Source: Frankiales bacterium
GTDB lineage: Bacteria > Actinomycetota > Actinomycetes > Mycobacteriales > SCTD01
DNA: 64,000 nt
Direction: 5' to 3'
Assembly: GCA_025966135.1 (NCBI GenBank)
Contig: JAOPVP010000038.1
Coordinates: forward strand, 309-64,308
The translations under genes and the position numbers were made by a program. Below are positions 22,255-46,886 of the stretch, in pieces. Numbering within the stretch: position 1 is the stretch's first letter; each line of letters starts with the position of its first letter. Below the pieces are notes generated by a model that had not been told where the DNA came from, did no database searches, and worked only from the letters and a program-made list of their open reading frames with translations.

Positions 22255-22283
22255 GCCGTCGTCAAGCCTTCTCGCCTTGCCCA

Positions 22284-23273: not shown

Positions 23274-24305
23274 CTACCCGGCGGCGGAGCCGGAACCGGC
23301 GTCCCGTTGTGCCATCCGGGCCCGCTGCGGTTCGATGACATAGCGAGGGTCCTTGGTGGAGGCCACTCCGGCCTCGAACACCCCGAACCGCTGCAGCGCG
23401 CCGCCAGCCAGCAACGCTGCCCCTGAGGCGACCGCCACTGTCCTGCTGCGGCCCGCGCCCAGGAGGGTGCCGGCCAGTCCACCGGCCGTGAGCAGCTCAG
23501 AGGCGTGGCGCAGTTGGTGTGCCTTACCCGTCCGGTACGCCTGCGCGACCAGGTCGAGTCGCTCCTCGAGCACCCGGGAGGCCACCAGCTCCTGGATGGC
23601 GCCGTAGACGGCGAGACCCCTGGCCGGACCGGCCTCGCCCCGGGGCGCCAGCACCATGGCGAGGCCACCGGCAGTGGCGGCGGCGGAGCCGGTGAACAGG
23701 AACGGCAGCTCGCGACGCGCCTCGTGCCAGGCTGGCGCGGCGGTCTGCGACAGCAGCACGGCCGGGTAGGAGGCGACGGCAGGAGCGAGAGCGGCAGCGG
23801 CCAGCCCGGCCGGTCGCGCAGCTCGACGAACCAGGCGCCCTGGCAACGTGGTCCGCCACCGCGTCGGCACGAGCTCGCGCATCGCCGCGATGCCGACGCC
23901 TGGGGCGTACGCGGTCAGCACCCAGGTGCCCACACTCATCGGCGAGGTCGGCTTGGCTACCCGCAGCATGTGGTGGAACCGCTCCGGACGCCCGAGGTCC
24001 GAGACCAGGAAGTAGGTGCTGGCAAGCAAGCTGGCCAGCGCGGACAACCAGCCCGCCCGGCGCAGCGCCGGCCGCCCGGTGAGCTCCGCACCGGCGCCGA
24101 GCACGGCGGAGCCGGCGGACAGACCGCCGGTGAACAGGTACGCCGCGATCTTCCACTCCCACACCGGCGGCTTGAGGACCGGACGTCCGTAGTAGGAACG
24201 AAACTCCGCCGGCGGGACCATCAGCTCCTCGCCGCGGCCCCGCCGGCTCCTTGCGAACGTGCGGGTGCCTGTCTCGAGTGCGCGGCCGTCACCGCCCTGC
24301 GTCAT
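23274..24305 (-). CDS. NrfD/PsrC family membrane anchor of formate dehydrogenase
   Basis: SYYGRPVLKPPVW, YLFTGG, DLGRPERF, SPMSVGTW. Confidence 0.9.
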   Translation of the reverse strand: MTQGGDGRALETGTRTFARSRRGRGEELMVPPAEFRSYYGRPVLKPPVWEWKIAAYLFTGGLSAGSAVLGAGAELTGRPALRRAGWLSALASLLASTYFLVSDLGRPERFHHMLRVAKPTSPMSVGTWVLTAYAPGVGIAAMRELVPTRWRTTLPGRLVRRAARPAGLAAAALAPAVASYPAVLLSQTAAPAWHEARRELPFLFTGSAAATAGGLAMVLAPRGEAGPARGLAVYGAIQELVASRVLEERLDLVAQAYRTGKAHQLRHASELLTAGGLAGTLLGAGRSRTVAVASGAALLAGGALQRFGVFEAGVASTKDPRYVIEPQRARMAQRDAGSGSAAG

Positions 24306-25336
24306 CGTCGGCCGGCCGCGACGAAGACTGCCACCGCCGCAGTGACGAACGCGGCGCACGCAGCGCCGGCGTGCCGCCACATGTCCACCAGGTCTCGGCT
24401 TGCGACGATCGGGTCGGGCGGCAGGCCGTACACCTCGGGCTCATCGAGGAGCAGGAAGAAGGCGGCCGAGCCGCCGATGCCGTCGTCGGGGTCCTCGCCG
24501 TAGAGCCGGGCCTCGGGAACGCCCCGCTCGTGAAGTTGCTCGACCCGCGCCGCCGCCCGCTCCCGCAACTCGTCCAGAGGGCCGAACTGGATCGATTCGG
24601 TAGGGCAGGCCTTCGCACACGCCGGCTCGAGCCCGTCCTGGAGCCGGTCGTAGCAGAGCGTGCACTTGTTCGCGCGGCCGTCCTGCGGCCGGCGATCGAT
24701 GACGCCGAACGGGCAGCCGGAGACGCAGTAGCCGCAGCCGTTGCAGATGTCCTGCTGCACCACGACGGTCCCGAACTCGGTCCGGAACAGCGCCCCGGTG
24801 GGGCACACGTCGAGGCATGCCGCGTGGGTGCAGTGCTTGCAGACATCGCTCATCATCAGCCAGCTAAAGTCGGTGCGGCTCTCGGCACCGGTGGCGGCCC
24901 CAGGCAGCGACAGGGAGGGCATCCCGAGGTCAACCGTCGTGGTCCCGAGCTCACCGCCACCACGCTCGGTGTCGCGCAGACCGGCAGCCACGGTGGCCTC
25001 CATGTGCGCGACGCCCGAGGCGCCTGTCGGCATCCCCTCCACGCCGGAGACCTGCCCCCCAAGGGGCGCCTCCCGCTCGATGAAGGCCACGTGCCGCCAG
25101 GTGTTGGCTCCGAGCATCCCGCTGTTGTCCAGCGACATCCCGAGCAGGTTCATCCCGTCGTCCGGGACCAGGTTCCACTCCTTGCACGCCACCTCGCAGG
25201 CCTTGCACCCGATGCACACCGAGGTGTCGGTGAAGAAGCCGACCCGCGGCGGGTGCTCGACGTGACCTGCGTCGGCCGCAGGGTCATCGAGCCGGCCGTA
25301 CAGCCGGTGCCGCCCCGGCTCGTGGTCGGTGCTCAT
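24302..25336 (-). CDS. Formate dehydrogenase iron-sulfur (beta) subunit
   Basis: CIGCKACEVAC, CKHC..ACLDVCP, CNGCGYCVSGCP, CTLC...PACAKACP; C-terminal hydrophobic tail. Confidence 0.93.
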   Translation of the reverse strand: MSTDHEPGRHRLYGRLDDPAADAGHVEHPPRVGFFTDTSVCIGCKACEVACKEWNLVPDDGMNLLGMSLDNSGMLGANTWRHVAFIEREAPLGGQVSGVEGMPTGASGVAHMEATVAAGLRDTERGGGELGTTTVDLGMPSLSLPGAATGAESRTDFSWLMMSDVCKHCTHAACLDVCPTGALFRTEFGTVVVQQDICNGCGYCVSGCPFGVIDRRPQDGRANKCTLCYDRLQDGLEPACAKACPTESIQFGPLDELRERAAARVEQLHERGVPEARLYGEDPDDGIGGSAAFFLLLDEPEVYGLPPDPIVASRDLVDMWRHAGAACAAFVTAAVAVFVAAGRR

Positions 25337-28300
25337 GTCGCTGCCGCCTCTCCGTGCTCCGGGTCCTCCGCAGCCGCCCGGCGGCGGTACGCGGCGACGT
25401 ACTCGAGTAGTTCCGGCCCGCGCGGCCGGCGGCCGGGGCGCACGTCGCAACTCGCGACCTTGCTCTCCTGGATGAGCACGTTCGGCTCGGCGGTGATGCC
25501 GAACAGGTCGTTGACGACGTCGCCTACGACCAGGCCGACGTTCCCCCAGTGGTAAGGCATCCACACCTGGTGCACCACGCGGCCGGCGACCCGCAGGGGC
25601 ACCAGGCGGTCGGTCACGAGCACCCGGGCCTCCACCGCTGTACGGCTGGTGATGACATGCGCCCAACCCAGGTGCTCGAGGCCGCGCTCACGTGCCAGCT
25701 CCGGTGAGACCTCGACGGTGAGCGCCGGCTGGAGCTCTGCGAGGTACGGCAGGTGTCGGCTCATGCCGCCGGCGGTGTGGTGCTCGGTGAGCCGGGCCGT
25801 CGTCAGGATGTAGGGAAAGACCCGCGACTGCACTGGGTTCAGCGGATTGTCCGGCCGCGCGTAGTCCTTGCGGGTCGGCGAGGCCTGCTGCCCGTACAGG
25901 AGGTTGCGCACCGGCGACTCGCGCGGCTCGTAGTGCGTCGGGAGCGGCCCGTCCACCAGTCCGCTCGGGGCGAACAGCCAGCCCTTGCCGTCGGCCTGCA
26001 TCACGAACGGGTCGTCGCCACGGAGCGCTGCGGGACCGACGGCATCCCCGGGCGGCACGTAGTCCGGCGGCTTGCTCCTTTCGAAGTCAGGAACGTCCTC
26101 GCCGACCCACTCGGCGCGGGAGGCGTCCCACCACACGCAAGCCTTGCGCTCGCTCCACGGCCGACCCTCCGGGTCCGCCGATGCGCGGTTGTAGAGGATG
26201 CGCCGGTTGTACGGCCAGACCCAGCCCCACTCGTGCGCGTAGAGGTCCTGGTCCAACCGCGAGGTGCGGCGTGCCGCGTGGTTCAGCCCACCCGCGAAGA
26301 CCCCGCTGTAGATCCAGCATCCGCAGGAGGTCGACCCGTCGGCCTTCAGCTCGAGGTAGCCGTCCACCAGCCGCCCGGTCGTCAGGTCGTGGCCGCTCAC
26401 CCGGCGCAGCACGTCCTCGGCGGACGGCTCGCCGCCGGGCGCGTCGTAGTCCCACGCGAGGTCCAGCAGCGGGCGGTCCCGCTCGTCCGTCGACGCGGCG
26501 AGCCGCTCCCGCAGCCGGCGGCCGAGGTGGTACATGAACCACAGGTCCGACCGCTGGTCGCCCTTCGGCTCGACCGCCCGCTCGCGCCACTGCAGCATCC
26601 GCTGGGTGTTGGTGAAGGTCCCCTCCTTCTCCACGTGCGAGGCAGCCGGGAAGAAGAAGACCTCTGTGCGGCAGTTCTCGGGGGTGATCTCTCCGGTCTC
26701 GATCTCCGGCCCGTCCTTCCAGAAGCTGGCGCTCTCGATCATCACGAGGTCGCGCACGACCAACCAGTCCAGGTTGGCCAGGCCGAGGCGCTGCACCCGT
26801 CCGTTCACCGACCCGACAGCCGGGTTCTGACCAAGCAGGAAGTAGCCGAAGACCTTGCCATCGACCATGTCCATCGCGGTGCGGTACGTGCCGTGGTCGC
26901 CGTCGATCCGCGGGAGGTAGTCGAAGCAGTAGTCGTTGTCGGCCGTCGCGGCGTCGCCCCAGTACTCCTTCAGCAGCGAGACCAGGTAGGCGTCTGCGTT
27001 GCGCCAGAACCCCTTCTGCTTGTCGGCACGCACGCTCTCGACGTACGACGTCAGGTCGGTGTGCGTCCGGGCCGACGGCATCGGCAGGTAGCCGGGCAGC
27101 AGGTTGTACAGGGTGGGGATGTCCGTCGAGCCCTGGATGCTGGCGTGGCCGCGCATCGCCATGATGCCACCGCCGGGCCGACCGATCTGCCCCAGCAGCA
27201 GCTGCAGGATCGACGCCGCCCGGATGTTCTGGGCACCAGTGGTGTGCTGCGTCCAGCCGACGGCGTAGACGACTGCGCTGGTGCGCTCCCGCCCGGAGTT
27301 GCGGGTCCACGCCTCGCACACTCGCGCGAACTGTGCCCGGGGGACGCCGCACACCTGCTCCACCATCTCCGGCGTGTAGCGCGCGAAATGCCGCTTGAGC
27401 ACCTGGTACACGCACCGTGGGTCCTGCAGAGTGGGGTCGGCGGCGATGTCACCGGTCACCCCCTCCAGCCGCGGGCCGCCCGACCCGAGCTGGTGGCCGA
27501 TGCCGGTCTCCTTGGCCTCCCCCGCATCGAACCCGCCGAGGTGCTGGGCCGGGTCGGCACTGCGGTACCGCCAGCTCCTCGGGTCGTAGCTCGCCGACTC
27601 GGGCTCGTAGCCGCTGAACAGCCCGTCGAGGTCTTCGGTGTCCTGGTACTCGTCGGTGAGCAGGAAGGACGCGTTCGTGTAAGCCACGACGTACTCGCGG
27701 AAGTCGAGCTCGTTGTCGAGGACGTGCTTGATGACGCCGCCCAGGAAGGCGATGTCGCTGCCTGCCCGGATCGCCACGTGAACGTCCGCCAGCGCACTGG
27801 TGCGGGTGAACCGCGGATCGATGTGGATGACCGTGGCCCCACGGGCCTTCGCCTCCAGCACCCACTGAAAGCCCACCGGGTGCGCCTCGGCCATGTTCGA
27901 ACCCATGATCACGATGCAGTCCGAGTTGGCGAGGTCCTGCTGGAAGTCAGTCGCCCCGCCGCGACCGAACGAAGCCCCCAGACCGGGGACGGTGGCGCTG
28001 TGTCATATCCGGGCCTGGTTCTCGATCTGCACGGCGCCGAGCGCGGTGAAGAGCTTCTTGATGAGGTAGTTCTCCTCGTTGTCCAGCGTGGCCCCGCCAA
28101 GGCTCGCGATCCCCATCGTCCGGCGCAGCCGGTGACCGTGGTCGTCGTGCTCCTGCCAGCCCTTGGCCCGTGCGTCGAGGACCCGGTCGGTGACCATGTC
28201 CATCGCGGCGTCGAGGTCGAGCCGCGTCCAGCTGGTCGCGTACGGCGCGCGGTACAGCACGTGCTGCTCGCGCTGAGGCCCGGTCACGAGCTGCTTGCTC

Positions 28301-28572
28301 GCGGACCCCTTCGGGCAGAGCCGGCCGCGGGAGATCGGGCTGTCCGGGTCGCCCTCGATCTGCACGACCTGGTCGTCCTTGACGTACACGTTCTGCCCGC
28401 AGCCCACCGCGCAGTACGGGCACACCGAGCGGGCAACCCGGTCGGCGGTCGCAGTGCGAGCCACCAACTGCTCGGTGCCCTTGGACTCGGCGGACTTGCC
28501 ACGGCCGAGGGGGTCGGTGCCCGTGAGCTGGCGGTACACCGGCCAGGCATCCAACCAGGTCCACCTGCTCAT
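25333..28572 (-). CDS. Formate dehydrogenase alpha subunit, selenocysteine-containing (UGA at 28003-28005), about 1079 aa
   Basis: ORFs 28003..28593 and 25333..27912 share a frame across one TGA: IENQARI-U-HSATVPGLGASFGRGG; CPYCAVGC...LCPKG Fe-S motif; MRGHASIQG. Confidence 0.93.
27974..27990 (-). promoter_or_regulatory. Bacterial SECIS-like hairpin
   Basis: GUCCCC-GGUCU-GGGGGC begins 12 nt 3' of the in-frame UGA. Confidence 0.75.
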
Positions 28573-28758
28573 GGCGCTCCCCTTCCGAGGCATGACGCAG
28601 CCGGGTCATGCGGCGCTCCACCGGGGTATAGCCACGGGTCTGTGGCCCAAACGCAGCCGCGCTACCGAATGACAGAGCTGCGCGAGCCGTACGGCGACGA
28701 CCTCACCTCCGGGACGCCCTCCGTCAGGCGACCCGTCCTGGCGGGCGCTTCGTGCCGG

Positions 28759-29772
28759 TCACGCGGATGCGCCCGCGATCGTTGCGGTCCGACCGGCGAA
28801 ATCATCGACCGTGGCCAGGCTGAAGACCCCGTGATCGCTGCCCAGTCCCTGCACGACCTGCGCTGCGGTTGCGGTACCCAGGACAGCGGCTTCCCGCTCC
28901 GACCTACCGAGCAACCTGCCCACCAGGAAACCCGCCGAGAAGGCGTCGCCGCACCCCGAGGTGTCCACCACGTCGGCGGCGAACGCCGGCACCCTGGTCG
29001 TTCCGTCAGCGGACACCACGACCGCTCCGTCGGCGCCGCACGTGATGGCGACACAGCCCACGCCGACCGCGAGCAACGCACGACCGGCCGCCTCGATGTC
29101 GGCCTCCCCCGTCAGCCCCAGGGCCTGGTCGCGGTTGGGTAAGAGGTAGTCGATGTGCTGCCAGGCCGGCGAGATCCAGTCGAACATCCCGGGATCTCCG
29201 GGGGCAAGCATGTCCACCGACGTGGTCAGCCCCAGCTCGCGGGCCCGCTCGAGGACGACGGCAGCGTCGGGGCCGCCCAGGAACTCCGGTCCACCGAGGT
29301 GCAGATGGTCCACCTCAGCGACCACTCCCCAGGGAACGTCGGCGGCGGTGTACGTGCCGTTCGCGCCGATGACGTGGAACGCGGGCCGGTCGCCGTTGGG
29401 ATGGATCGGCAGCACACTGGCGGACGTGGCAGCATCGGGCCGCACGAGCAGGTGAGTCGGGTCGACGCCGGCCGTGCGAAGGAGCGACAGCAGCATGGTG
29501 CCGGCTGGGTCGTCGCCCAGGGCACCGGCGCTGCTGACGCGGGCACCGAGCTTGGCGAGCGTGACAGCAGTGCCTCCGGCAGTACCGGCGGCACTGAACC
29601 GGATGTGGTCTACGAGCTGGGCGTCCTGTCCCCTTGGCAAGGACTCGACGGCATGGACGAGGACGTCCAAGACGTGCACGCCCATGGCTAGGATCTTCAG
29701 GTCCGCTGGCACGACCGCACTGCCGCCTGTCAGTGCTTCGCTCGACGTCGGTTTTGTCGCCGCATCTGCCAT
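28759..29772 (-). CDS. PfkB family carbohydrate kinase
   Basis: AGTAGGTAVTLAKLG, PNRDQA, VVDTSGCGDAF. Confidence 0.92.
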   Translation of the reverse strand: MADAATKPTSSEALTGGSAVVPADLKILAMGVHVLDVLVHAVESLPRGQDAQLVDHIRFSAAGTAGGTAVTLAKLGARVSSAGALGDDPAGTMLLSLLRTAGVDPTHLLVRPDAATSASVLPIHPNGDRPAFHVIGANGTYTAADVPWGVVAEVDHLHLGGPEFLGGPDAAVVLERARELGLTTSVDMLAPGDPGMFDWISPAWQHIDYLLPNRDQALGLTGEADIEAAGRALLAVGVGCVAITCGADGAVVVSADGTTRVPAFAADVVDTSGCGDAFSAGFLVGRLLGRSEREAAVLGTATAAQVVQGLGSDHGVFSLATVDDFAGRTATIAGASA

Positions 29773-29784
29773 GTGCCCGACCGT

Positions 29785-29815
29785 ACTACATGAACGCAAA
29801 TCGTGTTCATGTAGT
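29785..29815. promoter_or_regulatory. Palindromic operator (probable TetR site) between divergent kinase and aldolase genes
   Basis: Perfect ACTACATGAAC-N9-GTTCATGTAGT. Confidence 0.75.
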
Positions 29816-29865
29816 GTCCATTGCATGAGCACTTCGAGCGCAGCTGCGACCCGCGGGCGCCACTG

Positions 29866-30519
29866 ATGCTCGAGCCGCTACGGGAGGCCGTCGCGGCAGC
29901 CTGTCGCCGCCTGGCCGTTGACCGGCTGGTGATAGGCACAGCCGGAAACCTGTCTGCCCGCAGCGGCGACCACGTCGTCATCACGCCTACCGGGCTCACG
30001 CTGGCGGCAGCCGCGCCGGAGGACCTGACCGTGATCGACCTCGAGGGGCGAGTGGTCGAAGGTCGTTACGCCCCCACCTCCGAGGTGCAGCTGCACCTGG
30101 CCATCTACACCGCTCACGCTGCCGGTGCGGTCGCGCATGCGCACCCGCTGGACTCGACAGCCGTTGCCTGCACCGTCGCTGAGCTGCCTGCCTGGCACTA
30201 CACGACAGCAGCGCTCGGTGGGCCGGTGAGAGTAGCGCCGTACGCGACATTCGGTAGCCGAGAGCTCGCGGACGGAGTGCTCACCGCGCTGGAAGGCCGG
30301 ACTGCGGCGCTGATGGCTCACCACGGCAGCGTGGCCTATGGCGACACGGTCGACCAGGCGTGCGACCGGATCGAGCATGTGGAGTGGCTCGCGGGGCTGC
30401 ACACCCGGATCACCCAGCTCGGCGGGGGACGTCCACTTAGCCCGTCGGAGCTCGAGGACGTCGTCACGGCCGCCATCCAGCGCAGCTACGGCGCGCCACG
30501 AGCGTTGGCTGAGGACTGA
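29866..30519 (+). CDS. Class II aldolase/adducin family protein (FucA-like)
   Basis: GTAGNLS, ITPTG, PTSE..LH, HAHP, YATFGS, AHHG (Zn ligands). Confidence 0.92.
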   Translation: MLEPLREAVAAACRRLAVDRLVIGTAGNLSARSGDHVVITPTGLTLAAAAPEDLTVIDLEGRVVEGRYAPTSEVQLHLAIYTAHAAGAVAHAHPLDSTAVACTVAELPAWHYTTAALGGPVRVAPYATFGSRELADGVLTALEGRTAALMAHHGSVAYGDTVDQACDRIEHVEWLAGLHTRITQLGGGRPLSPSELEDVVTAAIQRSYGAPRALAED

Positions 30520-30526
30520 GTCGCCG

Positions 30527-31186
30527 GTGAGCCCCGCAGCAGCCGACCCGCGGGTCCGACGTCAGCCTCAGCAGGCGCGCAGCCGTCTGCGCGTGGGGAG
30601 GATCCTCGACGCCGCTGAGGACCTGCTCGTCTCGCAGGGGTACGACGCGCTCACGATTCGCCAGCTGGCCGCAAGCGCCGGCGTCCCGACAGGCACGATC
30701 TACCAGTTCTTCCCCGACAAGCAGGCCATCGTGGACGTCCTGGCCGAGCGGTACCTGACACTGTTCTCCGACACCATGGCCGCGCTGGAAGTACGGGAGC
30801 CCTTTGGCTCGCCCGAGGAGCTGGTCGAGGTGCTGGTGGACACCTTTGCCGACCTCTACCGGCGCCACCCCGGCTATCGAGCGCTGTGGCTCGGCCGACA
30901 CCTGAGCCCGGAACTGCTCCGCGCCGACGAGCAGAACAACGACGATCTCGCCGAAGGTCTTTGGCGTCTGCTGCTTGCCCACGGCTTCGCCGGCGAGGGC
31001 GACCGCGACCTGCAGATCGGTTGCCGTGTCGCGGTTCTCATCGCGGACGCCCTGCTCCGGGCCGCGTTCCGGGCCTCCCCGGACGGTGACCCTGACGTGA
31101 TCGCGCACGCCAAGCTGGTGGAGAACAGCTACGTCGCCAACTTGCTCCATCGCCAGAACGGTGCCGTCGGAGGGCGCACGCAGTAG
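30527..31186 (+). CDS. TetR family transcriptional regulator
   Basis: RRQPQQARS..RILDAA...LTIRQLAASAGVPTGTIYQFFPDK. Confidence 0.93.
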   Translation: MSPAAADPRVRRQPQQARSRLRVGRILDAAEDLLVSQGYDALTIRQLAASAGVPTGTIYQFFPDKQAIVDVLAERYLTLFSDTMAALEVREPFGSPEELVEVLVDTFADLYRRHPGYRALWLGRHLSPELLRADEQNNDDLAEGLWRLLLAHGFAGEGDRDLQIGCRVAVLIADALLRAAFRASPDGDPDVIAHAKLVENSYVANLLHRQNGAVGGRTQ

Positions 31187-31388
31187 GGCTTGGACGACGG
31201 GTCCAGACCTGACGGTTACCGACATGAGCCCCTCTCGCCCAGGCGCGTGAGCGGCCGCTGATCCCCCGCTGCTCACCGCCGTACTGCTTGTTCCGCTCGG
31301 CGAACCGCTGCGCGTGGGTGGAACGCGCTCCTGTCCCCAACCCTGGGTTGTCGAAGTCCCGTGCAGCAGGACTCTCGAAAGGGTTAGG

Positions 31389-31416
31389 TGAACCCGACAT
31401 GGGTTCATGTTAGGTT
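31389..31416 (+). promoter_or_regulatory. Second TGAAC-N9-GTTCATGT operator abutting a -10 element (TAGGTT)
   Basis: TGAAC-CCGACATGG-GTTCATGT at 31389-31410; TAGGTT at 31411-31416, 7 nt before GTG 31424 (leaderless geometry). Confidence 0.65.
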
Positions 31417-31423
31417 GGGCGAC

Positions 31424-32818
31424 GTGGCAACTCCCCCTTCGACTCCCCCCGATCACACCTTCGACGTTGCCGTTGTTGGCGCTGGGATCGCTGGGCTCGT
31501 GGCAGCCCGGCAGCTAGCTGCTCTCGGACTGGACGTCGTTGTCCTCGAGGCCCACGAGTCGGTCGGCGGAAGGACCCGCAGCGCCCAGGTCGCAGGCGTC
31601 ACCGTGGACCTCGGCGGCACCTTTGTCGGTCCGACCCAGGACCGAGTCATCGCGCTCGCGGCCGCCCTCGGCTGCCGGACACATCCAACCTGGGTACAGG
31701 GCAAGAGCGTGGTTCGCTGGCACGGCTCGCGACGCCGTTACTCCGGGACCATCCCTCGCGTCCCGGTCACGACGCTGCTCAACACCGAACGGGTCCGGCT
31801 GCTGTTCGACCGTGCCGCGAACAGGCTCGGCGCAGACGGCATGGGCAGGTCAGAGCAGGACGAGATCAGCCTCGGCACGTGGCTGACGAGGGTCCGTGCA
31901 GGCCAGGGCGCGACGGCACTGCTCGCGGCCGTCGCCAGGACGACCTGGGGCTGCGAACCCGACGAGGTGTCCCTTCTGCATGCCCTGCGATATGTCAAGG
32001 GGTGTGGCGGCATCAACCGGATGCTCGACACCGAGGGGGGTGCGCAGCAGGACCACTTCGCAGCCGGTGCCCAGGAGATGAGCCTGCGGATGGCCGCGGA
32101 GCTGAACGTCTACACCGCCTGCCCGGTCAGGTCTGTCAGGCATACCGCGGGCGAGGACGTCGTCCTCGAGACCCCGCACGGCGACCTGGTGGCCCGGGCC
32201 GTCGTCGTCGCTGTGCCTCCGGCCATGCGAAACAGGATCGTCTTCGATCCGCCGCTGCCGTCCGGCTATCAGGCACTGTCGCAGCGCTGGCCCCAGGGCG
32301 CACTCACCAAGGCCTACGCCGTGTACGAGAAGCCGTTCTGGCGCGATGACAACCTGAGCGGACAGACGCTGAGCGACGACGGTCCTGTTTTCATCACGCT
32401 CGACGCCAGCCCCGAAGACGCGAGCCGGGGGGCGCTGCTCGGCTTCATCGGAGGCGACTACGCCCGGCGCTTCGACGCTCTCCCTCAAGCCGAACGGCGG
32501 CTGCAGGTCCTCCAGTGCTTCGCCGAACTGTTCGGCCCGGCCGCGCTGCAACCGCTGGGCTACATCGACCAGAGATGGGCGTCCGAGCCGTGGATCGGCG
32601 GCGGGCCGACCGCGCATCCCGGCCCCGGGGCACTGACCGGCTACGGACGTTGGATGGCCGAGCCCGTCGGTCGCATCCACTGGGCGGGCACAGAGACCGC
32701 CGACGTCTGGTCCGGTTTCATGGACGGCGCAGTGCGTTCCGGCGAACGCGCCGCGACCGAGGTCGCGGCGCACCTGGCCGTGCGGACAACCGACGACGAA
32801 ATGGCGGCAAACGCGTGA
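31424..32818 (+). CDS. Flavin monoamine oxidase family protein
   Basis: VVGAGIAG, VGGRT, DLGGTFVGPTQ, HWAGTETA..SGFMDGAVRSGERAA. Confidence 0.92.
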   Translation: MATPPSTPPDHTFDVAVVGAGIAGLVAARQLAALGLDVVVLEAHESVGGRTRSAQVAGVTVDLGGTFVGPTQDRVIALAAALGCRTHPTWVQGKSVVRWHGSRRRYSGTIPRVPVTTLLNTERVRLLFDRAANRLGADGMGRSEQDEISLGTWLTRVRAGQGATALLAAVARTTWGCEPDEVSLLHALRYVKGCGGINRMLDTEGGAQQDHFAAGAQEMSLRMAAELNVYTACPVRSVRHTAGEDVVLETPHGDLVARAVVVAVPPAMRNRIVFDPPLPSGYQALSQRWPQGALTKAYAVYEKPFWRDDNLSGQTLSDDGPVFITLDASPEDASRGALLGFIGGDYARRFDALPQAERRLQVLQCFAELFGPAALQPLGYIDQRWASEPWIGGGPTAHPGPGALTGYGRWMAEPVGRIHWAGTETADVWSGFMDGAVRSGERAATEVAAHLAVRTTDDEMAANA

Positions 32819-33243
32819 CCTGGTCGACGGAATCCACCTGCGAGACGACCGCGACGGCACAGGCCGTCTGGGACCGCTGGACAACGGCGTCGAGTTGGTC
32901 CGAGGACGACGCGAGCTGCCAATGGGCAACGCTCGAGGAACCCCTGAAGGTGGGGTCGAAGGGCAAGGTCAGGACAACCGGGCCGGCCCAGAACTTCACG
33001 TTCACCGAGGTCGTCCCGCTGAAGAAGATGACCTTCACGATCAGCCTCCCCCTGGCCGTGCTGGCCTTCCCGCACACCTTGGGCGCGGGCAGCTCTCCGA
33101 GCACCGTCCGCGTCACGCACGGGATCGTCATCACCGGTCCGCTCGCCCCGGTCTTCGGGTTCCTGGTCGGTCGCAAGCTCGCCCGGGAGCTGCCTCGGGT
33201 CGTTCGGTTGGTGACGGAGCACGCCGTCCTGGCTGAGGCCTAG
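32815..33243 (+). CDS. SRPBCC (polyketide cyclase/START-like) protein
   Basis: ATAQAVWDRWT..SW, VTHGIVITGPLA..F; GTGA overlap with the oxidase stop. Confidence 0.75.
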   Translation: MTWSTESTCETTATAQAVWDRWTTASSWSEDDASCQWATLEEPLKVGSKGKVRTTGPAQNFTFTEVVPLKKMTFTISLPLAVLAFPHTLGAGSSPSTVRVTHGIVITGPLAPVFGFLVGRKLARELPRVVRLVTEHAVLAEA

Positions 33244-33409
33244 GACCACAGCTGGCCACCGAGTGTCATCTGGCGCCATCAAGCCCAGGGCTGACTGCAC
33301 CGACGATCTGAACACCGGTCTGGCTCAACAGCTGAGCGCAACCGAACGTGGCCTCTGGATGGGTTGACCGTTGCGAACGCTCCGCAAGCCCACGATGCGT
33401 GTGGGTGAC

Positions 33410-34162
33410 TCACCGCCCGGCGGCGAAGGTGTGCCAGGCTGCCGGCTGCCTGCTCGCGACCGCGGCTCCGACGGCCACCACGGCGACCACCGCGACCACC
33501 GCACCTAGAGCAGCCGGGACGCTGACACGCAGGACCAGCAGCGCACCGCCTACTGCGCCGAGCAGCATGGCGCCTACGGACAAGCCGCGGCGCAGCGCCA
33601 CGCGCAGGTTCCGGTTACGGAGGTCGGCTGCGACACCGGTCAGCGTCATCGTGAGCACTGTGGTGGTGAGGTCGGGCACCGCGAGGCGGCGTACGGCGGC
33701 GTTCTGCAGACCGAGCGCGACCGCGGCCAGTGCGACGACGCAGTCCCGCGGGACCGTGCCCAAGTCGTCTCCGACTACGACGGTGATGACCAGCGCCGCC
33801 ACGAGGAACAGCACTTCCGCAGTGGCGACGTTGCGGGCCAGGCGACCACGATGGGCGCCGAAGCGGCTGTTGGCCGCGCCGCCCAGAGCGGCGCCAACCA
33901 GGAACCCGACCAGGGCGACGAGCGAGGCGTCGAGCACGAATCCCGGTGCGCCGGCGAGGGCGAAGCCGGTGAAGGCGATATTGCCCGTCATGTTCGCCAC
34001 GAACACCCGTCCCAGGCGCAGGATGCTGACCGCGTCAACGATGCCGGTCGCGACGGTGAGCCCGAGCAGGAGCGCCGGAAGGGGGCCGTGAGCTGGGTCG
34101 GCGAAGTAGTCAGCTGTCCAGCTGACGCGGACGGTGTTCCTCTCACCTGGTCTGCTGGTCAT
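33410..34162 (-). CDS. YoaK/DUF1275 family membrane protein
   Basis: TGIVDAVS, VFVANMTGN, GLQNA, TTVLTMTLT. Confidence 0.9.
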   Translation of the reverse strand: MTSRPGERNTVRVSWTADYFADPAHGPLPALLLGLTVATGIVDAVSILRLGRVFVANMTGNIAFTGFALAGAPGFVLDASLVALVGFLVGAALGGAANSRFGAHRGRLARNVATAEVLFLVAALVITVVVGDDLGTVPRDCVVALAAVALGLQNAAVRRLAVPDLTTTVLTMTLTGVAADLRNRNLRVALRRGLSVGAMLLGAVGGALLVLRVSVPAALGAVVAVVAVVAVGAAVASRQPAAWHTFAAGR

Positions 34163-34269
34163 GCGACCTCCCATCGGTGGTGCGAGGTCAGCATGACAGC
34201 GGGGGCACAGAAGCTAAAGGCTCCAGCGAAGCCATCGTCGAGCTGGTCGCCAGTCGGAGCCTTGGATGC

Positions 34270-35346
34270 TCATCCCCTGACCCGATGACGGCGAACCGGA
34301 CCAGTTGACTTCCGGACCACGAGCGGGCACGGCAACAGCAGGCAGCGTGCATCCGGGGTTGACGCGTCCTCGATCCGTTCCTGAAGCAGGCGCGCCGCTT
34401 GGACGCCCATTTCGCGTTTCGGCAGGTGGACCGTCGTCAGTGCAGGCTGAACTCTGGTCATGAACGGCATGTCGTTGAAGCCGACCACAGAGACGTCTTT
34501 CGGGCACGTCAGGCCCGACGCACGCAAGGCGTCGATGACACCGAGGGCCAGCAGATCATTGCCGGCAACGATCGCGGTGGGTGGCTCATCCGCTCCGGCA
34601 AGCAGCTCAGAGATCGCGGCCTGACCAGCGGCTTCGCTGTATCCGGCTGCGAAAAGCACCGGGCAGTCGTCCGCGGACAGACCGGCTGTTGCTGTTGCGT
34701 CGACGAATGCGCGGTGTCGGATGAGGCCCGTGGACAGCTCCTGGGGGCCGGCGACGTGCCCGATCCGACGGTGACCGAGCTCGGTCAGGTGCAGGACGGC
34801 GTCGCGGATGCCGGCCGCCTCGTCACCTGCGACTGCCGGCAAGAGCCGCTTGTCGGTGAGGCGATTGACCAGGACAGCGGGGATTCCATGCGCTGCGGCC
34901 TCCTCCACCAGGGGGTCTACCCGGCGTGCCGTTGCCAGGACGAACCCGTCGCACTGCCGCGCCCGCAGTGCCGCAAACAGCCGCAGCGCCCGGTCTGAGT
35001 CATTGTCGGTGTTGACGACGAGCGCGATCAGGCCATTCGCCCCGAGCACCTCCTCGACGCCCCGGACGATAGGTGGGAACAAGGGGTTCGTGAGGTCCGG
35101 CAGCAGGAGGCCGACGGTGAACGACCGCCGAGTGCGCAGGCCCCGGGCCAAGGTGTTCGGCTGATAGCCGAGCTCGCTCGCCGTGGCCATGATGCGGCGC
35201 ACCGTCGCTGCCGCCACCCGGTGACGGGTGTCCGGGTTGAGCGCCTTGGAGGCAGTGCCCGGATGCACACCCGCGGCGCGAGCGACGTCAGCCAACGTCA
35301 CACTCACCCCGGCGCCGGGGTCGGGGATAGCCGAGTGCGCGGTCAT
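34270..35346 (-). CDS. LacI family transcriptional regulator
   Basis: TLADVARAAGVHPGTASKALN, LGYQPNTLARGL, LGHRRIGH, SVVGFND, LTTV. Confidence 0.95.
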   Translation of the reverse strand: MTAHSAIPDPGAGVSVTLADVARAAGVHPGTASKALNPDTRHRVAAATVRRIMATASELGYQPNTLARGLRTRRSFTVGLLLPDLTNPLFPPIVRGVEEVLGANGLIALVVNTDNDSDRALRLFAALRARQCDGFVLATARRVDPLVEEAAAHGIPAVLVNRLTDKRLLPAVAGDEAAGIRDAVLHLTELGHRRIGHVAGPQELSTGLIRHRAFVDATATAGLSADDCPVLFAAGYSEAAGQAAISELLAGADEPPTAIVAGNDLLALGVIDALRASGLTCPKDVSVVGFNDMPFMTRVQPALTTVHLPKREMGVQAARLLQERIEDASTPDARCLLLPCPLVVRKSTGPVRRHRVRG

Positions 35347-35410
35347 GACGGGTGCCCTTTCCCATTTGTTCGAAGTGGTTGACGCAACCTCGCACGCGAG
35401 TTAACTTTCG

Positions 35411-35582
35411 CGCAACCGATTGTCGTGCGTGTCGCCAGATCGTTGCAGGAGCTCACACATCGCCATTCGGCCCGCGGCACTGCGTCATGGCGCAACGACG
35501 ACGCAGCAACGGATTTGCATTCCTTCACTCACGAGCAGAACGCCACAGGAAGGTCACTGCATGTACGACAATCGATTGTCGT
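35411..35582. promoter_or_regulatory. Two LacI-type operators
   Basis: CGCAACCGATTGTCGT (35411-35426) and the perfect palindrome ACGACAATCGATTGTCGT (35565-35582). Confidence 0.7.
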
Positions 35583-36811
35583 TCAGAACCCGAAATCGTC
35601 TCGGCCTCGCTGCCGCTGCCATGGGCCTCATGGTCAGTGTCAGCGCCTGCTCCGCGTCGGCCACCTCCAGTTCGTCCACCAGTTCGACCACGTTGGTCAT
35701 CGGCGTCTCCCTGTCGCTGACCGGCGACTTCGCCGACCCCGGCAAGGCCGTTCAGCGCGGCTACCAGGTGTGGGCGGACGGGGTGAACGCCAAAGGCGGC
35801 ATCCTCGGCCGCAAGGTCGAGATGAAGATCGTCGATGACCTCTCCAGTCCCAACCAGGTGGTCACCAACTACCAGAACCTCATCTCCCGCGACCATGTCG
35901 ACCTCGTCTTCGGTCCGTTCTCGAGCCTGCTGACGGTCCCGGCATCCCAGGTGGCCAACCGGTATCACTACGCGTTCGTCGAGTCAGCAGGTGGCGGGCC
36001 CAAGGTGTTCGCCCAGAACCTGCACAGCCTTTTCTTCGTGCAGCCCGCCCCGGTCGTGGAGCAGGGCAACGTGTTCGCCGACTACATCCTGTCTCTCCCC
36101 GCTGGTCAGCGGCCCAAGACGGCCGCCTATCCCTCGCTGGACGACCCGTTCGCCAAGCCCATCGCTGACGGCGTGCAGAAGCGGTTCGAAGCCGCTGGGA
36201 TCAAGACGGTCTACTCGGGCACCTATCCCGCCGAGACACCGGACCTCACACCGATCATGGCGAAAATCGCAGCTGCCAAGCCCGATGTCATCGTCTCCGG
36301 GACCCAGTCCCAGGACGCCTATCAGCAGGTCAAGTCGCTCGTCCAGCTCCATTTCAACCCCCGCTGGCTGTTCATGAGCAACGGTGCCAACTCCCCGACC
36401 GAGTTCCCCGACAAGGTCGGAAAGGGCAACACCGCCGGAGTGTTCTCAGCCGGTGACTGGTTCGCCGACTCCAAGGCGGCCGGCAGTGCAGACTTCGTCA
36501 AGGCGTACATCGCGAAGTTCGGAGGGACCGCCGCCGGCATCGACAACTCGTCCGCGGAGGCGTACGCGGCGGGCCAGGTGATCGAGCTCATCGCGAAGCG
36601 CACGGGACGAGTCGACAACCAGACGATCATCAACTCCCTGCACAGCGGAACCTGGCCGACGCTGCTGGGTGACCTGTCCTGGAACAGCGTCGGCGCGCCG
36701 CAGGGCAGCTACCAGCTCGTGCAGTGGATCGGCGGCGCCCTCAAGCCCGTCTTCCCTGCGTCGGTGGCGCAGGCGGCAGCCGTAGTCCCCAAGCCCAACT
36801 GGGCCGGATAG
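35561..36811 (+). CDS. Branched-chain amino acid-type ABC substrate-binding lipoprotein
   Basis: ATG 35561 after AGGAAGG; VSAC lipobox; SLTGDFA, NAKGGILGRKV, GPFSS. Confidence 0.92.
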   Translation: MYDNRLSFRTRNRLGLAAAAMGLMVSVSACSASATSSSSTSSTTLVIGVSLSLTGDFADPGKAVQRGYQVWADGVNAKGGILGRKVEMKIVDDLSSPNQVVTNYQNLISRDHVDLVFGPFSSLLTVPASQVANRYHYAFVESAGGGPKVFAQNLHSLFFVQPAPVVEQGNVFADYILSLPAGQRPKTAAYPSLDDPFAKPIADGVQKRFEAAGIKTVYSGTYPAETPDLTPIMAKIAAAKPDVIVSGTQSQDAYQQVKSLVQLHFNPRWLFMSNGANSPTEFPDKVGKGNTAGVFSAGDWFADSKAAGSADFVKAYIAKFGGTAAGIDNSSAEAYAAGQVIELIAKRTGRVDNQTIINSLHSGTWPTLLGDLSWNSVGAPQGSYQLVQWIGGALKPVFPASVAQAAAVVPKPNWAG

Positions 36812-36824
36812 GAGGCACGCGCAC

Positions 36825-37703
36825 ATGCACGCACTCATCCAAGGCCTCATCCTCGGTGTTCTCACCGGCGGCGTGTACGCGCTCATGGCGTCGGGTCAGA
36901 CCTTGATCTTCGGAATCATGAAGGTCGTCAACCTGGCGCAGGGCGCGTTCGTGATCGCCTCGGCGTACCTGGCGTTCACGCTCTTCACCAGGTTCGGCAT
37001 CGATCCCTTTCTCGCGGTCCTCATCACGACACCGCTCATGTTCTGCATCGGCGCCGCCGGCCAGTGGCTGTTCCTGCGCCCGCTGCGGCGTGAGAACGCC
37101 GCCGAGCTGTCGCTTCTGGTCACGTTCGCGCTTGCCCTGCTGATCGAGGGCATCTTGTCGGTCACCTACTCGACCACGTATCGCAGCATCAACACCGGAT
37201 ACGCGAACAAGTCCTTCGAGGTGGCGGGCTACACCGTCTCGGCGGTGCGTCTGTACGGCTTCCTGCTGTCGATTGCCCTCCTTGGCTTGCTGTACGGGGT
37301 ACTGCAGAAGACCCGATTCGGGCGAGCGATCCGGGCAACCGTGCAGAACCCGCAGTCCGCGGCCCTGCTCGGTGTCGATGCCACGCGCGTGCAGGCGTAC
37401 GGCTTCGGCCTGGGTATCTCGACCGCCGCGGCATCCGGTTCGATCTTCGGGCTGCTCTACCCCTTCCAGTCAGGCAGCCACTACGACCTCATCTCGCGCC
37501 TGCTGTCGGTGGTGGTGCTGGGTGGGCTCGGATCGATCGGCGGAGCGGTCTTGGCCGGCATCGCGATCGGCGTCGTGTCCTCCGTGGCCGCAGTCCTGTG
37601 GTCACCAACCTGGTCAGAGATGAGCTTCTTCGTGGTCCTCCTCCTTGTCCTGCTCGTACGGCCACAAGGCATGTTCGGTCGCGTCGAGCGAGGTGCCGTA
37701 TGA
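36825..37703 (+). CDS. ABC permease (LivH-like)
   Basis: GGVYALMASGQTLIFGIMKVVNLAQG, TRFGRAIRA, VRPQG. Confidence 0.93.
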   Translation: MHALIQGLILGVLTGGVYALMASGQTLIFGIMKVVNLAQGAFVIASAYLAFTLFTRFGIDPFLAVLITTPLMFCIGAAGQWLFLRPLRRENAAELSLLVTFALALLIEGILSVTYSTTYRSINTGYANKSFEVAGYTVSAVRLYGFLLSIALLGLLYGVLQKTRFGRAIRATVQNPQSAALLGVDATRVQAYGFGLGISTAAASGSIFGLLYPFQSGSHYDLISRLLSVVVLGGLGSIGGAVLAGIAIGVVSSVAAVLWSPTWSEMSFFVVLLLVLLVRPQGMFGRVERGAV

Positions 37704-38812
37704 CCACCGCGAGCATGCACCAGAGTCGACTGGTTACCCCGGCCGGGCTCACCCGCGCGTCTGCCTTCACGGCCCTGCTCGTCGCGTTGCCGCTCGTGTT
37801 CAATGCGCACTGGATGGTGAACCTGCTGTTCTTCACCGTCCTGTACGCCGCGATGTCGGTGGCCTGGAACCTGATCGGCGGATACGCGGGGTACCCCTCG
37901 CTCGGCCATGCCGCGTTCTTCGGGTTGGGCGCCTACGGGGTCTCGCTGGTCTTCACGGGAAGCCAGGTCCTCTCAAACGGCTACGAGCCCTTCCTCCTGC
38001 TGCCCCTGGTTGGACTCGGCGCCGGCCTGATCGCACTCCCGATCGGCCTGATCGCCATGCGCACGCGGGCAGACGTCTTCGCCATCGTCACGATCACCCT
38101 GCTGTTCGTCGCGCAAACCCTGGCCTTCAACCTCAAGGGCCTCACCGGTGGGGCACAGGGCGCCAGCGTCGCGCCTCCCCCGTTCCGGCTGGAGATTTTC
38201 GAGCAGCCCTTCTACTTCGCGGCTGCTGCCCTGCTGCTGCTGGCGATGGGACTCACCTACCTCGCCGTCCGGACCAAGATCGGCCTGGCGCTGACCGCGA
38301 TCCGGGCCGATGAGGACAAGGCCCGCGGGATCGGCATCCGCACCACTGCTGTGAAGCTGATGGCGTTCTCCGTCAGCGTCGGCCTCGTGGCGATGGCCGG
38401 TGGGATCTGGGCGTACTACGTCGGTTTCGTCTACCCGCAGTTCGCCGTCGACCCGTTGCTCACGATCGCCATCGTGCTGATGACCTTCCTCGGCGGACGC
38501 GCCACGCTTTGGGGACCGGTGCTGGGTGCCGCCATCCTGATGCCCGCGCAGCAGCTGCTCGCCTACTACGTGGGCGGCAGCCGGCTGTACCTGATCGCCT
38601 ATGCCGCGATCTTCCTGTTGATCATCCTGCTGCTGCCTCGCGGAGTCCTGCCGACCGTGTTCCACCGACGTCGCCTGTCAGCTCTCGCGGCAACGGCCAG
38701 CCAGGCCGAGGCCCAGGCAGTGCCCTCGACAGGTCCTGAGGTTCTGCGGCCTCCGACCGTCATGGCGTCAGAACCGAGCTATGTCCAGACGTCAGCGGGT
38801 GAGCGCCGATGA
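37700..38812 (+). CDS. ABC permease (LivM-like)
   Basis: AWNLIGGYAGYPSLGHAAFFG, AIRADEDKA, GPVLG. Confidence 0.93.
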   Translation: MTTASMHQSRLVTPAGLTRASAFTALLVALPLVFNAHWMVNLLFFTVLYAAMSVAWNLIGGYAGYPSLGHAAFFGLGAYGVSLVFTGSQVLSNGYEPFLLLPLVGLGAGLIALPIGLIAMRTRADVFAIVTITLLFVAQTLAFNLKGLTGGAQGASVAPPPFRLEIFEQPFYFAAAALLLLAMGLTYLAVRTKIGLALTAIRADEDKARGIGIRTTAVKLMAFSVSVGLVAMAGGIWAYYVGFVYPQFAVDPLLTIAIVLMTFLGGRATLWGPVLGAAILMPAQQLLAYYVGGSRLYLIAYAAIFLLIILLLPRGVLPTVFHRRRLSALAATASQAEAQAVPSTGPEVLRPPTVMASEPSYVQTSAGERR

Positions 38813-39540: not shown

Positions 39541-39552
39541 GGAGGTAGCAGC

Positions 39553-41321: not shown

Positions 41322-41358
41322 TGCCCGCCCGTCGAGGGAAGCGACCGGAGTGAGCAGC

Positions 41359-42603: not shown

Positions 42604-42631
42604 ACTCACTTCTCTCTGGAGGGCACTACCG

Positions 42632-44664: not shown

Positions 44665-44703
44665 CCCCAGTCCCTCCCTCCTTCGCATGACCCTGGAGAC
44701 ATC

Positions 44704-46884: not shown

Positions 46885-46886
46885 CG

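Follow-up and report, generated by a model that had tools for sequence, protein, structure and literature searches.

A candidate actinobacterial route for phytosphingosine-type bases: a putatively TetR-regulated cluster of amine oxidase, PfkB kinase, FucA-type aldolase and SRPBCC protein

The DNA stretch studied here (the window) is 64,000 nucleotides long and belongs to contig JAOPVP010000038.1 of a Frankiales bacterium, whose draft genome of 3.7 Mb (70% GC, 108 contigs) is 91% complete. Five of its genes, between positions 28759 and 33243, encode a PfkB-family kinase, a FucA-type class II (Zn) aldolase, a TetR-family repressor, a cytoplasmic flavin adenine dinucleotide (FAD) amine oxidase of the monoamine oxidase (MAO) family and an SRPBCC (helix-grip) protein. 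They are interpreted as a catabolic operon under repressor control whose enzymes are of known families, with a pathway undescribed in the open-access literature searched. The chances appear about even that this pathway leads from a phytosphingosine-type base through its 2-oxo derivative and the corresponding 1-phosphate to dihydroxyacetone phosphate (DHAP) and a fatty aldehyde. The observations behind this reading are the identities of the genes, the conserved residues of the aldolase, an operator shared by the promoter regions, the recurrent linkage of the genes and the sphingolipid genes that lie next to them in other genomes.

The kinase gene (28759..29772, minus strand; 337 amino acids from the likely ATG at 29772, in an open reading frame extending to a GTG at 29832) is divergent from the aldolase gene (29866..30519, plus strand; 217 amino acids, frame open from 29821, likely ATG at 29866, stop at 30517-30519) and the tetR gene (30527..31186, plus strand, GTG start at 30527). 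These are followed on the plus strand by the oxidase gene (31415..32818, open reading frame from a GTG at 31388) and the SRPBCC gene (32815..33243, GTG start at 32815). This is the arrangement that the original prediction had described from the sequence, and it was recovered at these coordinates; Pfam confirmed four of the five genes outright, the SRPBCC gene being the exception, for which a fold model was used. The GTG of tetR lies 7 nt past the aldolase stop, and this spacing makes co-transcription of the two genes probable. For the oxidase, the TTG at 31415 or the GTG at 31424 is the more likely start, since the GTG at 31388 falls inside the second operator site described below. The GTG of the SRPBCC gene overlaps the TGA of the oxidase gene (GTGA), so that the two are translationally coupled. 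A scan of positions 28600-33500 for the sigma-70 consensus gave 0 sites; no terminator-like site was found on the plus strand between tetR and the oxidase gene, the sole such site lying within tetR on the minus strand. None of the five proteins reached the cut-off of an NCBIfam equivalog.

A 22-nt palindrome of the form TGAAC-N9-GTTCATGT is present in both promoter regions. Site 1 (29788-29812, ACATGAACGCAAATCGTGTTCATGT) lies within the 93 bp that separate pfkB from the divergent aldolase gene and is a perfect palindrome, ACATGAAC-N9-GTTCATGT, and site 2 (31386-31410, AGGTGAACCCGACATGGGTTCATGT), which reads AGGTGAAC-N9-GTTCATGT, is located just upstream of the oxidase start or overlaps it. When at most one mismatch was allowed, TGAAC-N9-GTTCATGT gave three strand matches in the window, all of them at these two sites; the shuffle control gave an expectation of 0.01 per window, and 0 of 100 shuffles reached three. 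The looser pattern TGAAC-N9-GTTCA occurs four times in the whole 3.7-Mb genome, two of the occurrences being these sites. The claim that both promoter regions carry the same operator was thus borne out. Among 14 TetR_C_22 relatives from other genomes, an AT-rich palindrome of like form, as judged by eye, was found among the four best-ranked inverted repeats of each adjoining promoter region (for example AGATGAACTGAGCGTCATATTCATGT in locus L094, GAACCTGAACATGTGTCAGGTTC in L144 and TGAACGTGACTTTGTTTCACGTTTA in L092), and the strict pattern GAAC-N7-13-GTTC matched only the two window sites and L144. The regulator itself scored 54.3 bits with TetR_N and 59.7 bits with TetR_C_22. A helix-turn-helix and a C-terminal ligand domain, together with two palindromic sites to which binding is predicted, are in keeping with the TetR family, and it is probable that this TetR_C_22-type repressor binds both palindromes and shuts off pfkB, aldolase-tetR and oxidase-SRPBCC.

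The aldolase scored 158.2 bits with PF00596 (Aldolase_II), and its alignment to Escherichia coli FucA (1fua/1dzy series) showed that N29, T43, G44, S72, E73, H92, H94, Y113 and the histidine of the HHG motif are kept, a set that includes the phosphate-binding residues, the three Zn histidines, Glu73 and Tyr113. The original assignment to FucA-type class II aldolases therefore holds, and the intact residues suggest a working DHAP-dependent enzyme rather than an epimerase, dehydratase or decarboxylase of the same family. The nearest structures are FucA enzymes, the third-best being the 5-deoxyribulose-1-phosphate aldolase 6btd of Bacillus thuringiensis (1.7e-30). The equivalog models for fuculose- and ribulose-phosphate aldolases all scored under their cut-offs (NF053831, 158.8 against 300; NF005302, 140.7 against 264; TIGR01086, 112.6 against 400), the ribulose-1-phosphate aldolase model NF053831 ranking first and the FucA models following. 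FucA-type enzymes make and cleave D-erythro 3,4-diols, and C3/C4 of D-ribo-phytosphingosine has the matching D-erythro configuration.

The kinase exceeded the PF00294 cut-off of 25.8 bits with 154.6 bits and possesses the C-terminal motif DTSGCGD (in VVDTSGCGDAF), an instance of DTxGxGD, the anion-hole and catalytic-Asp motif of PfkB enzymes. Its best match in the PDB was E. coli YdjH (3h49, E 3.8e-27). All 22 listed models of named sugar-kinase equivalogs, which comprise ribokinase, ribose-1-phosphate kinase, IolC, tagatose kinase, FrlD and KdgK, remained below cut-off, the best of them being the ribose-1-phosphate kinase model NF053626 (105.8 against 330).

The oxidase (PF01593, Amino_oxidase, 230.4 bits) matched the bacterial MAO 8p84 (9.4e-85), human MAO-A and human MAO-B (about 1e-74) in the PDB. 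The GxGxxG motif is present as GAGIAG and the lysine aligned with K296 of MAO-B is kept. The positions of MAO-B Cys397-Tyr398 are taken by Gly-Pro and that of Tyr435 by Phe; Cys397 is the covalent FAD cysteine and Tyr398 and Tyr435 form the aromatic cage, and the absence of the covalent Cys and of the two-Tyr cage is the reason for which the enzyme is filed as a member of the MAO family and not as a classical MAO. Every one of the 100 related oxidases that were scored among the fetched loci has xGGP at the Cys397/Tyr398 position and Phe or Tyr at the Tyr435 position; the xGGP oxidases are a separate branch of the family. The window oxidase has no signal peptide, about 20 residues preceding GxGxxG. 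Fifteen oxidases have an SRPBCC neighbour, and the 13 of these whose N-termini were read were likewise too short there for a signal peptide (again about 20 residues before GxGxxG), whereas the oxidases lacking such a neighbour carried a twin-arginine (Tat) signal in 11 of 11 scorable cases (e.g. SRRQLLAGG, TRRGLLAAG); the fragmentary oxidase copy of L094 was left out of this scoring. The need for an SRPBCC binder in the cytoplasm only would fit a poorly soluble, membrane-active and hydrophobic substrate.

By sequence the SRPBCC protein was sub-threshold for Polyketide_cyc2 (22.0 bits against a cut-off of 27.4, E 2.1e-4); its relative in L096 passes the same model with 70.7 bits. The AlphaFold model built from a 12-sequence alignment had a predicted local distance difference test score (pLDDT) of 95.3 and a helix-grip fold with the order beta-alpha-alpha-beta6-alpha. 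Foldseek returned 3ijt as the best match (TM-score 0.86, E 2.7e-10), followed by PR-10, PYR/PYL and START proteins, and on the strength of the model and these matches the SRPBCC label is justified. It is proposed that the protein is a lipid-binding helper of the oxidase. The predicted complex of the two scored 0.00 with controls not run, a value that speaks neither for nor against binding.

The linkage of these genes recurs well beyond the window. In an oxidase-anchored scan of reference genomes (80 loci, 50-58% identity, neighbours within 7 kb) the SRPBCC gene directly followed the oxidase gene in 12 loci, and kinase and aldolase genes were found in 10 of these 12 as against 0 of the other 68. 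The 68 stand-alone oxidases (among L002-L080), which have no kinase, aldolase or SRPBCC gene in their surroundings, belong almost all to Mycobacterium. Oxidase, SRPBCC, kinase and aldolase genes occur together in at least four gene orders: aldolase-kinase-oxidase-SRPBCC on one strand in Rhodococcus; oxidase-SRPBCC-aldolase-kinase in G366; TetR, a major facilitator superfamily (MFS) transporter and aldolase-kinase-oxidase-SRPBCC in G601; and, in Microbacterium, kinase-aldolase-aldehyde dehydrogenase (ALDH), followed by genes for an MFS transporter and an Abhydrolase_3 esterase running the opposite way and then by a TetR_C_31 regulator divergent from oxidase-SRPBCC. The Microbacterium version contains an ALDH, one of the genes for which the original prediction advised a search, and an MFS transporter. 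A metagenome scan with the SRPBCC alignment added 20 loci, 18 of them with parts of the Microbacterium arrangement, and no new gene orders.

At E <= 1e-55 the kinase turned up in 9 of the 400 genomes of the phylum sample; in the class sample 38 of 400 genomes held it, 26 of them at 54-65% identity and 12 at 43-48%. For the close group 26 loci were fetched, of which the phylum sample supplied 6 and the class sample 20, with about 9 kb on each side or up to the contig end; three further kinase holders (G654, G670, G760) are not among them, and for the distant group all 12 class-sample loci were taken in. Beside the close-group kinases an aldolase gene was present in 18 of the 26 loci, and relatives of the window TetR (30-41% identity) adjoined the aldolase-kinase pair in 14. 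An Amino_oxidase gene was likewise found in 14 (one fragmentary) and a gene resembling native amine dehydrogenase in 3 more, so that 17 of the 26 kinases have a deaminating enzyme nearby; the remaining 9 stretches, among them all four large-genome g22 loci, contained none. In the distant group a HemL-like class III aminotransferase gene adjoined the kinase gene in 12 of 12 loci and an aldolase gene in 3; aminotransferase, aldolase and kinase stand together in L100 and L101, two additional loci that came from other searches, and L101 has an alanine dehydrogenase besides. One kinase clade thus has at the same neighbouring position either a flavin amine oxidase (of two subtypes), an amine-dehydrogenase-like enzyme or an aminotransferase, as would be expected if the substrate of the kinase arises by removal of an amino group. 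As to conservation of the neighbourhood, on which the original prediction had made itself dependent, the co-occurrence of oxidase, kinase and aldolase in other genomes and in several orders was upheld, but the five-gene set is not conserved as such.

Two side observations concern these loci. In the sister clade of the kinase (L148-L159, L100, L101; 40-48% identity) the partners are in every case a HemL-like class III aminotransferase and a TetR_C_6 regulator. In the G184 lineage (L095:4311-7642) the gene of a Tat-type oxidase precedes those of a benzoylformate decarboxylase (659 bits with the NCBIfam equivalog, cut-off 493) and an FAD-binding dehydrogenase (954 bits), which hints at a different, possibly aromatic, amine there.

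Sphingolipid marker genes, which belong to rare enzyme families, adjoin the cluster components in three separate lineages. In Nocardioides (L018, L021) oxidase-SRPBCC occurs without the kinase and together with a neutral ceramidase (Ceramidase_alk, 165-166 bits against a cut-off of 32). In L021 a TetR gene is divergent from permease-ceramidase-oxidase-SRPBCC, all on one strand, and L018 is similar; ceramidase, oxidase and SRPBCC thus apparently form one operon. In genus g29 a Tat-type oxidase gene is divergent from TetR-aldolase-kinase, after which come genes for a homologue of sphingosine-1-phosphate (S1P) lyase and an MFS_2 transporter (L144); L145 has the same order without the oxidase. The S1P-lyase homologue (L145 copy) had 3mad as its best PDB match (1.3e-82), and the best match of the transporter was the lysolipid symporter MFSD2A (1.6e-17), ahead of MelB. 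In genus g378 (L129, L131, L135) a glycoside hydrolase of family GH5 is encoded beside the kinase and a GH78-like hydrolase is also present; the GH5 of L129, which also stands with the oxidase cluster, matched endoglycoceramidases or a sterylglucosidase, by title, in 7 of 8 PDB hits. Of the genes that had been named as ones to look for, a neutral ceramidase was accordingly met with beside oxidase-SRPBCC in Nocardioides, and a candidate lipid transporter, the MFSD2A-like one, in the neighbourhood of the kinase. The source genome encodes a neutral ceramidase on contig C51 and an endoglycoceramidase-like GH5 on C78. The window contains no S1P lyase; the homologue of this genome lies on contig C88, in an operon with an MFSD2A-like transporter that is headed by a TetR_C_22 paralogue (37% identical).

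The operon on C88 (L162:6177-17275) has the order Peripla_BP_6, MFS_2, S1P-lyase homologue, second Peripla_BP_6, fused permease, two ATPases and a 433-aa protein for which Pfam gave no match, and its intergenic palindrome, ACGTGAAGGATCCTCACAT, is unlike the window operator. Genus g29 also presents an 825-aa fatty-acid-desaturase/hydroxylase fused to FAD, NAD and 2Fe-2S reductase domains, beside an ALDH (L139:11017-14758), and a pair of GMC oxidoreductase and ALDH genes upstream of the cluster in L140 and L144.

The original prediction had proposed deamination, phosphorylation and aldol cleavage of an amino-triol, and this reading is strengthened by the linkage, the sphingolipid neighbours and the aldolase residues, from which we infer the following chemistry. 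The TetR protein would keep the genes silent as long as both a lipid-like amine and its oxo product are absent. The input would be long-chain 2-amino-1,3,4-triols, that is phytosphingosine-type bases freed from plant or fungal ceramides. The cytoplasmic FAD oxidase, fed by the SRPBCC protein, is proposed to convert the amino group at C2 into a ketone with release of NH4+ and H2O2, which would give a 1,3,4-trihydroxy-2-ketone. This lipid-tailed ketose, an analogue of 5-alkyl-5-deoxy-D-ribulose, would next be phosphorylated at its C1 hydroxyl by the PfkB kinase to an analogue of a ketose 1-phosphate, whose C3-C4 bond the FucA-type Zn aldolase, as proposed, would then cut to yield DHAP and a fatty aldehyde comprising C4 onward. 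Finally an ALDH, encoded within the cluster in Microbacterium and on contig C102 in the source genome, may form the fatty acid. The order oxidase, kinase, aldolase is favoured by the Tat-exported oxidases, which must meet the unphosphorylated substrate before the cytoplasmic kinase does. A wider generalization, for which the chances seem somewhat short of even, is that of an actinobacterial 'lipid-ketose' route independent of pyridoxal 5'-phosphate (PLP), in which the oxidase is either exported by Tat or kept in the cytoplasm with an SRPBCC chaperone, the PfkB enzyme would be the first known kinase of a lipid-tailed ketose, the aldolase is FucA-like, and TetR_C_22 would sense the base or its oxo product.

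Several findings weigh against this route. The five-gene set is not fixed, the regulator type, for example, varying by lineage (TetR_C_31 in Microbacterium), and no PfkB kinase is known to act on a lipid-tailed substrate. The four large-genome loci have TetR-aldolase-kinase with no oxidase within 9 kb, and a linked aldolase is absent from 8 of the 26 loci, mostly of one family; in family f124 the aldolase gene was found unlinked in three of four genomes searched, in uninformative surroundings (peptidase S15, enoyl-CoA hydratase, PhyH and F420 quinone reductase) that differ between the two genomes inspected. The aminotransferase-linked clusters L158 and L159, in which a split transketolase, ThuA, a cyclase and a methyltransferase are encoded beside the pair, look biosynthetic rather than catabolic. 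Sphingolipid markers adjoin in only 7 loci of the three lineages. The ceramidase family is present in 27 of 400 class-sample genomes, including G669, which is flagged unpublished, is not a kinase holder and bears on none of the claims made here, and its frequency of 9 in 26 close-kinase genomes against 17 in 362 without a kinase match gives weak and not independent support, because 8 of the 9 belong to one family. Among 22 genomes of the same genus the kinase was not found, yet most of them possess a ceramidase or an S1P lyase (6-7 have an S1P-lyase orthologue and about 11 a strong ceramidase match), so that the module is not required for sphingolipid use in this genus. Moreover, sphinganine and sphingosine lack the 4-hydroxyl needed for cleavage by the aldolase, which may be the reason for which S1P lyase is also kept.

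It was also considered that the same enzyme logic might serve a small polar amino-polyol, such as a 2-amino-2-deoxy-alditol or a serinol-like compound, and this we regard as unlikely. PfkB and FucA-type enzymes normally use small sugars, and the best family and PDB matches obtained here are sugar enzymes; in addition, the distant locus L100 has a peptide/opine-type SBP_bac_5 ATP-binding cassette (ABC) transporter, and L129 and L018 carry an FAD oxidase of the ALO/VAO type, a family that includes alditol oxidases. However, MAO-family oxidases and SRPBCC proteins typically take hydrophobic ligands, and a polar substrate leaves without explanation both the ceramidase, S1P lyase, MFSD2A-like transporter and endoglycoceramidase-like GH5 neighbours and the restriction of SRPBCC partners to signal-less oxidases. 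If, instead, phosphorylation came first, the PfkB enzyme would be an amino-alcohol (sphingoid base) 1-kinase, whose product passes to S1P lyase or is deaminated, through the oxidase or the aminotransferase, to the 2-oxo-1-phosphate for the aldolase. The Tat signals on 11 of 11 oxidases without an SRPBCC partner point to an unphosphorylated, extracellular substrate, and we know of no MAO-type active site that takes phosphate esters; moreover, the lyase operon of the source genome lies on another contig under its own TetR and has no kinase. Such an order is thus distinctly improbable, although in L144 and L145 the kinase gene directly adjoins that of the S1P lyase, which needs a 1-phosphate, no other kinase gene was seen in these clusters, and the 12 of 12 kinase-aminotransferase pairs of the distant group resemble known pairs of amino-alcohol kinase and PLP enzyme.

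That one repressor governs two unrelated modules, an oxidase-SRPBCC pair detoxifying a hydrophobic amine and a kinase-aldolase pair catabolizing a deoxy-ketose or similar sugar, was judged very improbable, since the halves are linked in at least four gene orders, single-strand arrays included, since other deaminating enzymes fill the position of the oxidase, and since neither an isomerase nor a sugar transporter was seen with the kinase and aldolase genes of the window. This is so even though the halves are separate transcription units in Microbacterium, four loci have TetR-aldolase-kinase without the oxidase, and the two Nocardioides loci have oxidase-SRPBCC without kinase and aldolase. Scarcely credible is a route in which the oxidase makes glycolaldehyde from ethanolamine, released through S1P lyase or by hydrolysis of N-acyl-ethanolamine, and the aldolase joins it with DHAP to a pentulose 1-phosphate: it has no role for the kinase or the SRPBCC protein, Tat-exported oxidases would miss an intracellular lyase product, and the lipid moiety is what the neighbouring endoglycoceramidase-like GH5 and MFSD2A-like transporter suggest. 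S1P lyase does yield phosphoethanolamine, the best NCBIfam model of the aldolase is, below cut-off, an enzyme of DHAP and glycolaldehyde, and an amino-acid-type permease and an amidase-like ceramidase homologue stand beside the Nocardioides oxidase, all of which would suit such a scheme. Among further candidates that were tried and rejected, the Amadori/fructosamine (FrlD-type), inosamine/myo-inositol, riboflavin, taurine and 3-oxo-tetronate pathways lack required enzymes at the locus, and the haloarchaeal pentose-bisphosphate pathway, from which the best NCBIfam models of both kinase and aldolase come, is matched by scores far below cut-off for both.

Convergent with the SRPBCC gene lies a gene for a DUF1275 membrane protein (33410..34174, minus strand; PF06912, 111.7 bits), whose membership of the system is uncertain; the only other case seen is a second DUF1275 protein, 43% identical, within the kinase/oxidase/GH5 cluster of L129. 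On the other side a molybdopterin oxidoreductase gene (25333-28593, minus strand) with Molybdop_Fe4S4, Molybdopterin and Molydop_binding domains has its frame broken by a single in-frame TGA at 28003-28005 (context ...ARI-TGA-HSATVPGLG), which looks like the selenocysteine codon of an alpha subunit of the formate dehydrogenase type. It is followed by genes for a 4Fe-4S subunit (24302-25666, minus strand) and an NrfD-like membrane subunit (23274-24380, minus strand), and upstream of these formate-dehydrogenase-like genes are a GH3 glycoside hydrolase and an aldose 1-epimerase (20992-23192, minus strand). A separate LacI-headed operon (34270-48242), in which no TetR-type operator was seen, encodes the binding protein, two permeases and two ATPases of a Peripla_BP_6 ABC transporter, as well as an enzyme resembling 3-hydroxyisobutyrate dehydrogenase, an M24 peptidase-family protein, an ALDH (540 bits), a glyoxalase-fold protein and the E1 and E2 components of a 2-oxoacid dehydrogenase.

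The use or detoxification of sphingoid bases by bacteria is largely unknown, and these bases are antimicrobial and abundant in plants, fungi and on animal surfaces. If the proposed phytosphingosine route is true, a single lipid would furnish nitrogen as NH4+, the glycolytic intermediate DHAP and a fatty acid without recourse to the eukaryotic pair of kinase and PLP lyase, and the substrate range of PfkB kinases and FucA-type aldolases would be widened to include lipid-tailed compounds. A widespread branch of MAO-like oxidases in bacteria that is uncharacterised would, together with its SRPBCC partners, gain a function, and a candidate sphingoid-responsive pair of TetR protein and operator would be provided. 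It is tempting to speculate that the stand-alone oxidases of many Mycobacterium, being of the same xGGP branch, might then act on sphingoid-type lipid amines as well. The four enzymes are small and soluble and have relatives in culturable Microbacterium and Rhodococcus, which makes the idea directly testable.

The E. coli YdjH/YdjI pair is a PfkB ketose kinase working with an aldolase of a different class II family; the likeness to the proposed route consists in a PfkB kinase preparing a ketose phosphate for retro-aldol cleavage to DHAP, while the similarity is low and there is no amine step, TetR or SRPBCC protein in that system. The sphingoid-base kinase and S1P lyase route of eukaryotes and some bacteria likewise takes in a long-chain base and gives out a fatty aldehyde and a small phosphate ester. 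It is, however, PLP-dependent and cuts C2-C3 to phosphoethanolamine, whereas the route proposed here would be PLP-free, would remove the nitrogen first, cut C3-C4 to DHAP and need the 4-hydroxyl.

In the open-access papers and preprints searched, no account was found in which flavin amine oxidase, PfkB kinase and class II aldolase are brought together, nor one that connects phytosphingosine to a DHAP aldolase. In the sphBCD system of Pseudomonas aeruginosa (PMC11893366), the best-studied one in bacteria, SphC is an FMN-linked enzyme with a cytochrome c partner, SphD is a predicted PLP aldolase, and the product of the sphingosine-induced oxidoreductase is still unidentified; the system involves neither PfkB kinase nor class II aldolase, and neither an oxidase of the MAO family nor an SRPBCC protein. 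For the sphinganine-like fumonisins, two reports describe conversion of the 2-amine into a ketone by a flavin amine oxidase of Aspergillus (PMC10746191) and by the aminotransferase FumI of Sphingopyxis (PMC3136697), that is by the same pair of alternative enzymes as is found beside the kinase here. The fumonisin enzymes act in detoxification and have no known connection with the formation of DHAP; since fumonisins have no hydroxyl at C1, their deamination is not followed by a kinase or an aldolase step.

A close analogy is offered by the DHAP shunt of 5-deoxyribose salvage (PMC6079011), which consists of a kinase, an aldose-ketose isomerase and a FucA-like class II aldolase. There, too, a FucA-family aldolase, the B. 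thuringiensis enzyme 6btd noted above, cuts a C5-substituted compound of the D-ribulose-1-phosphate type into DHAP and an aldehyde. No isomerase gene was found among the scanned window genes (20992 to 49496), and none would be needed, since the ketone is proposed to come from oxidative deamination. The present cluster would thus differ from the DHAP shunt by its PfkB-type kinase, by the direct C1 phosphorylation of a ketone and by the lipid tail of its proposed substrate.

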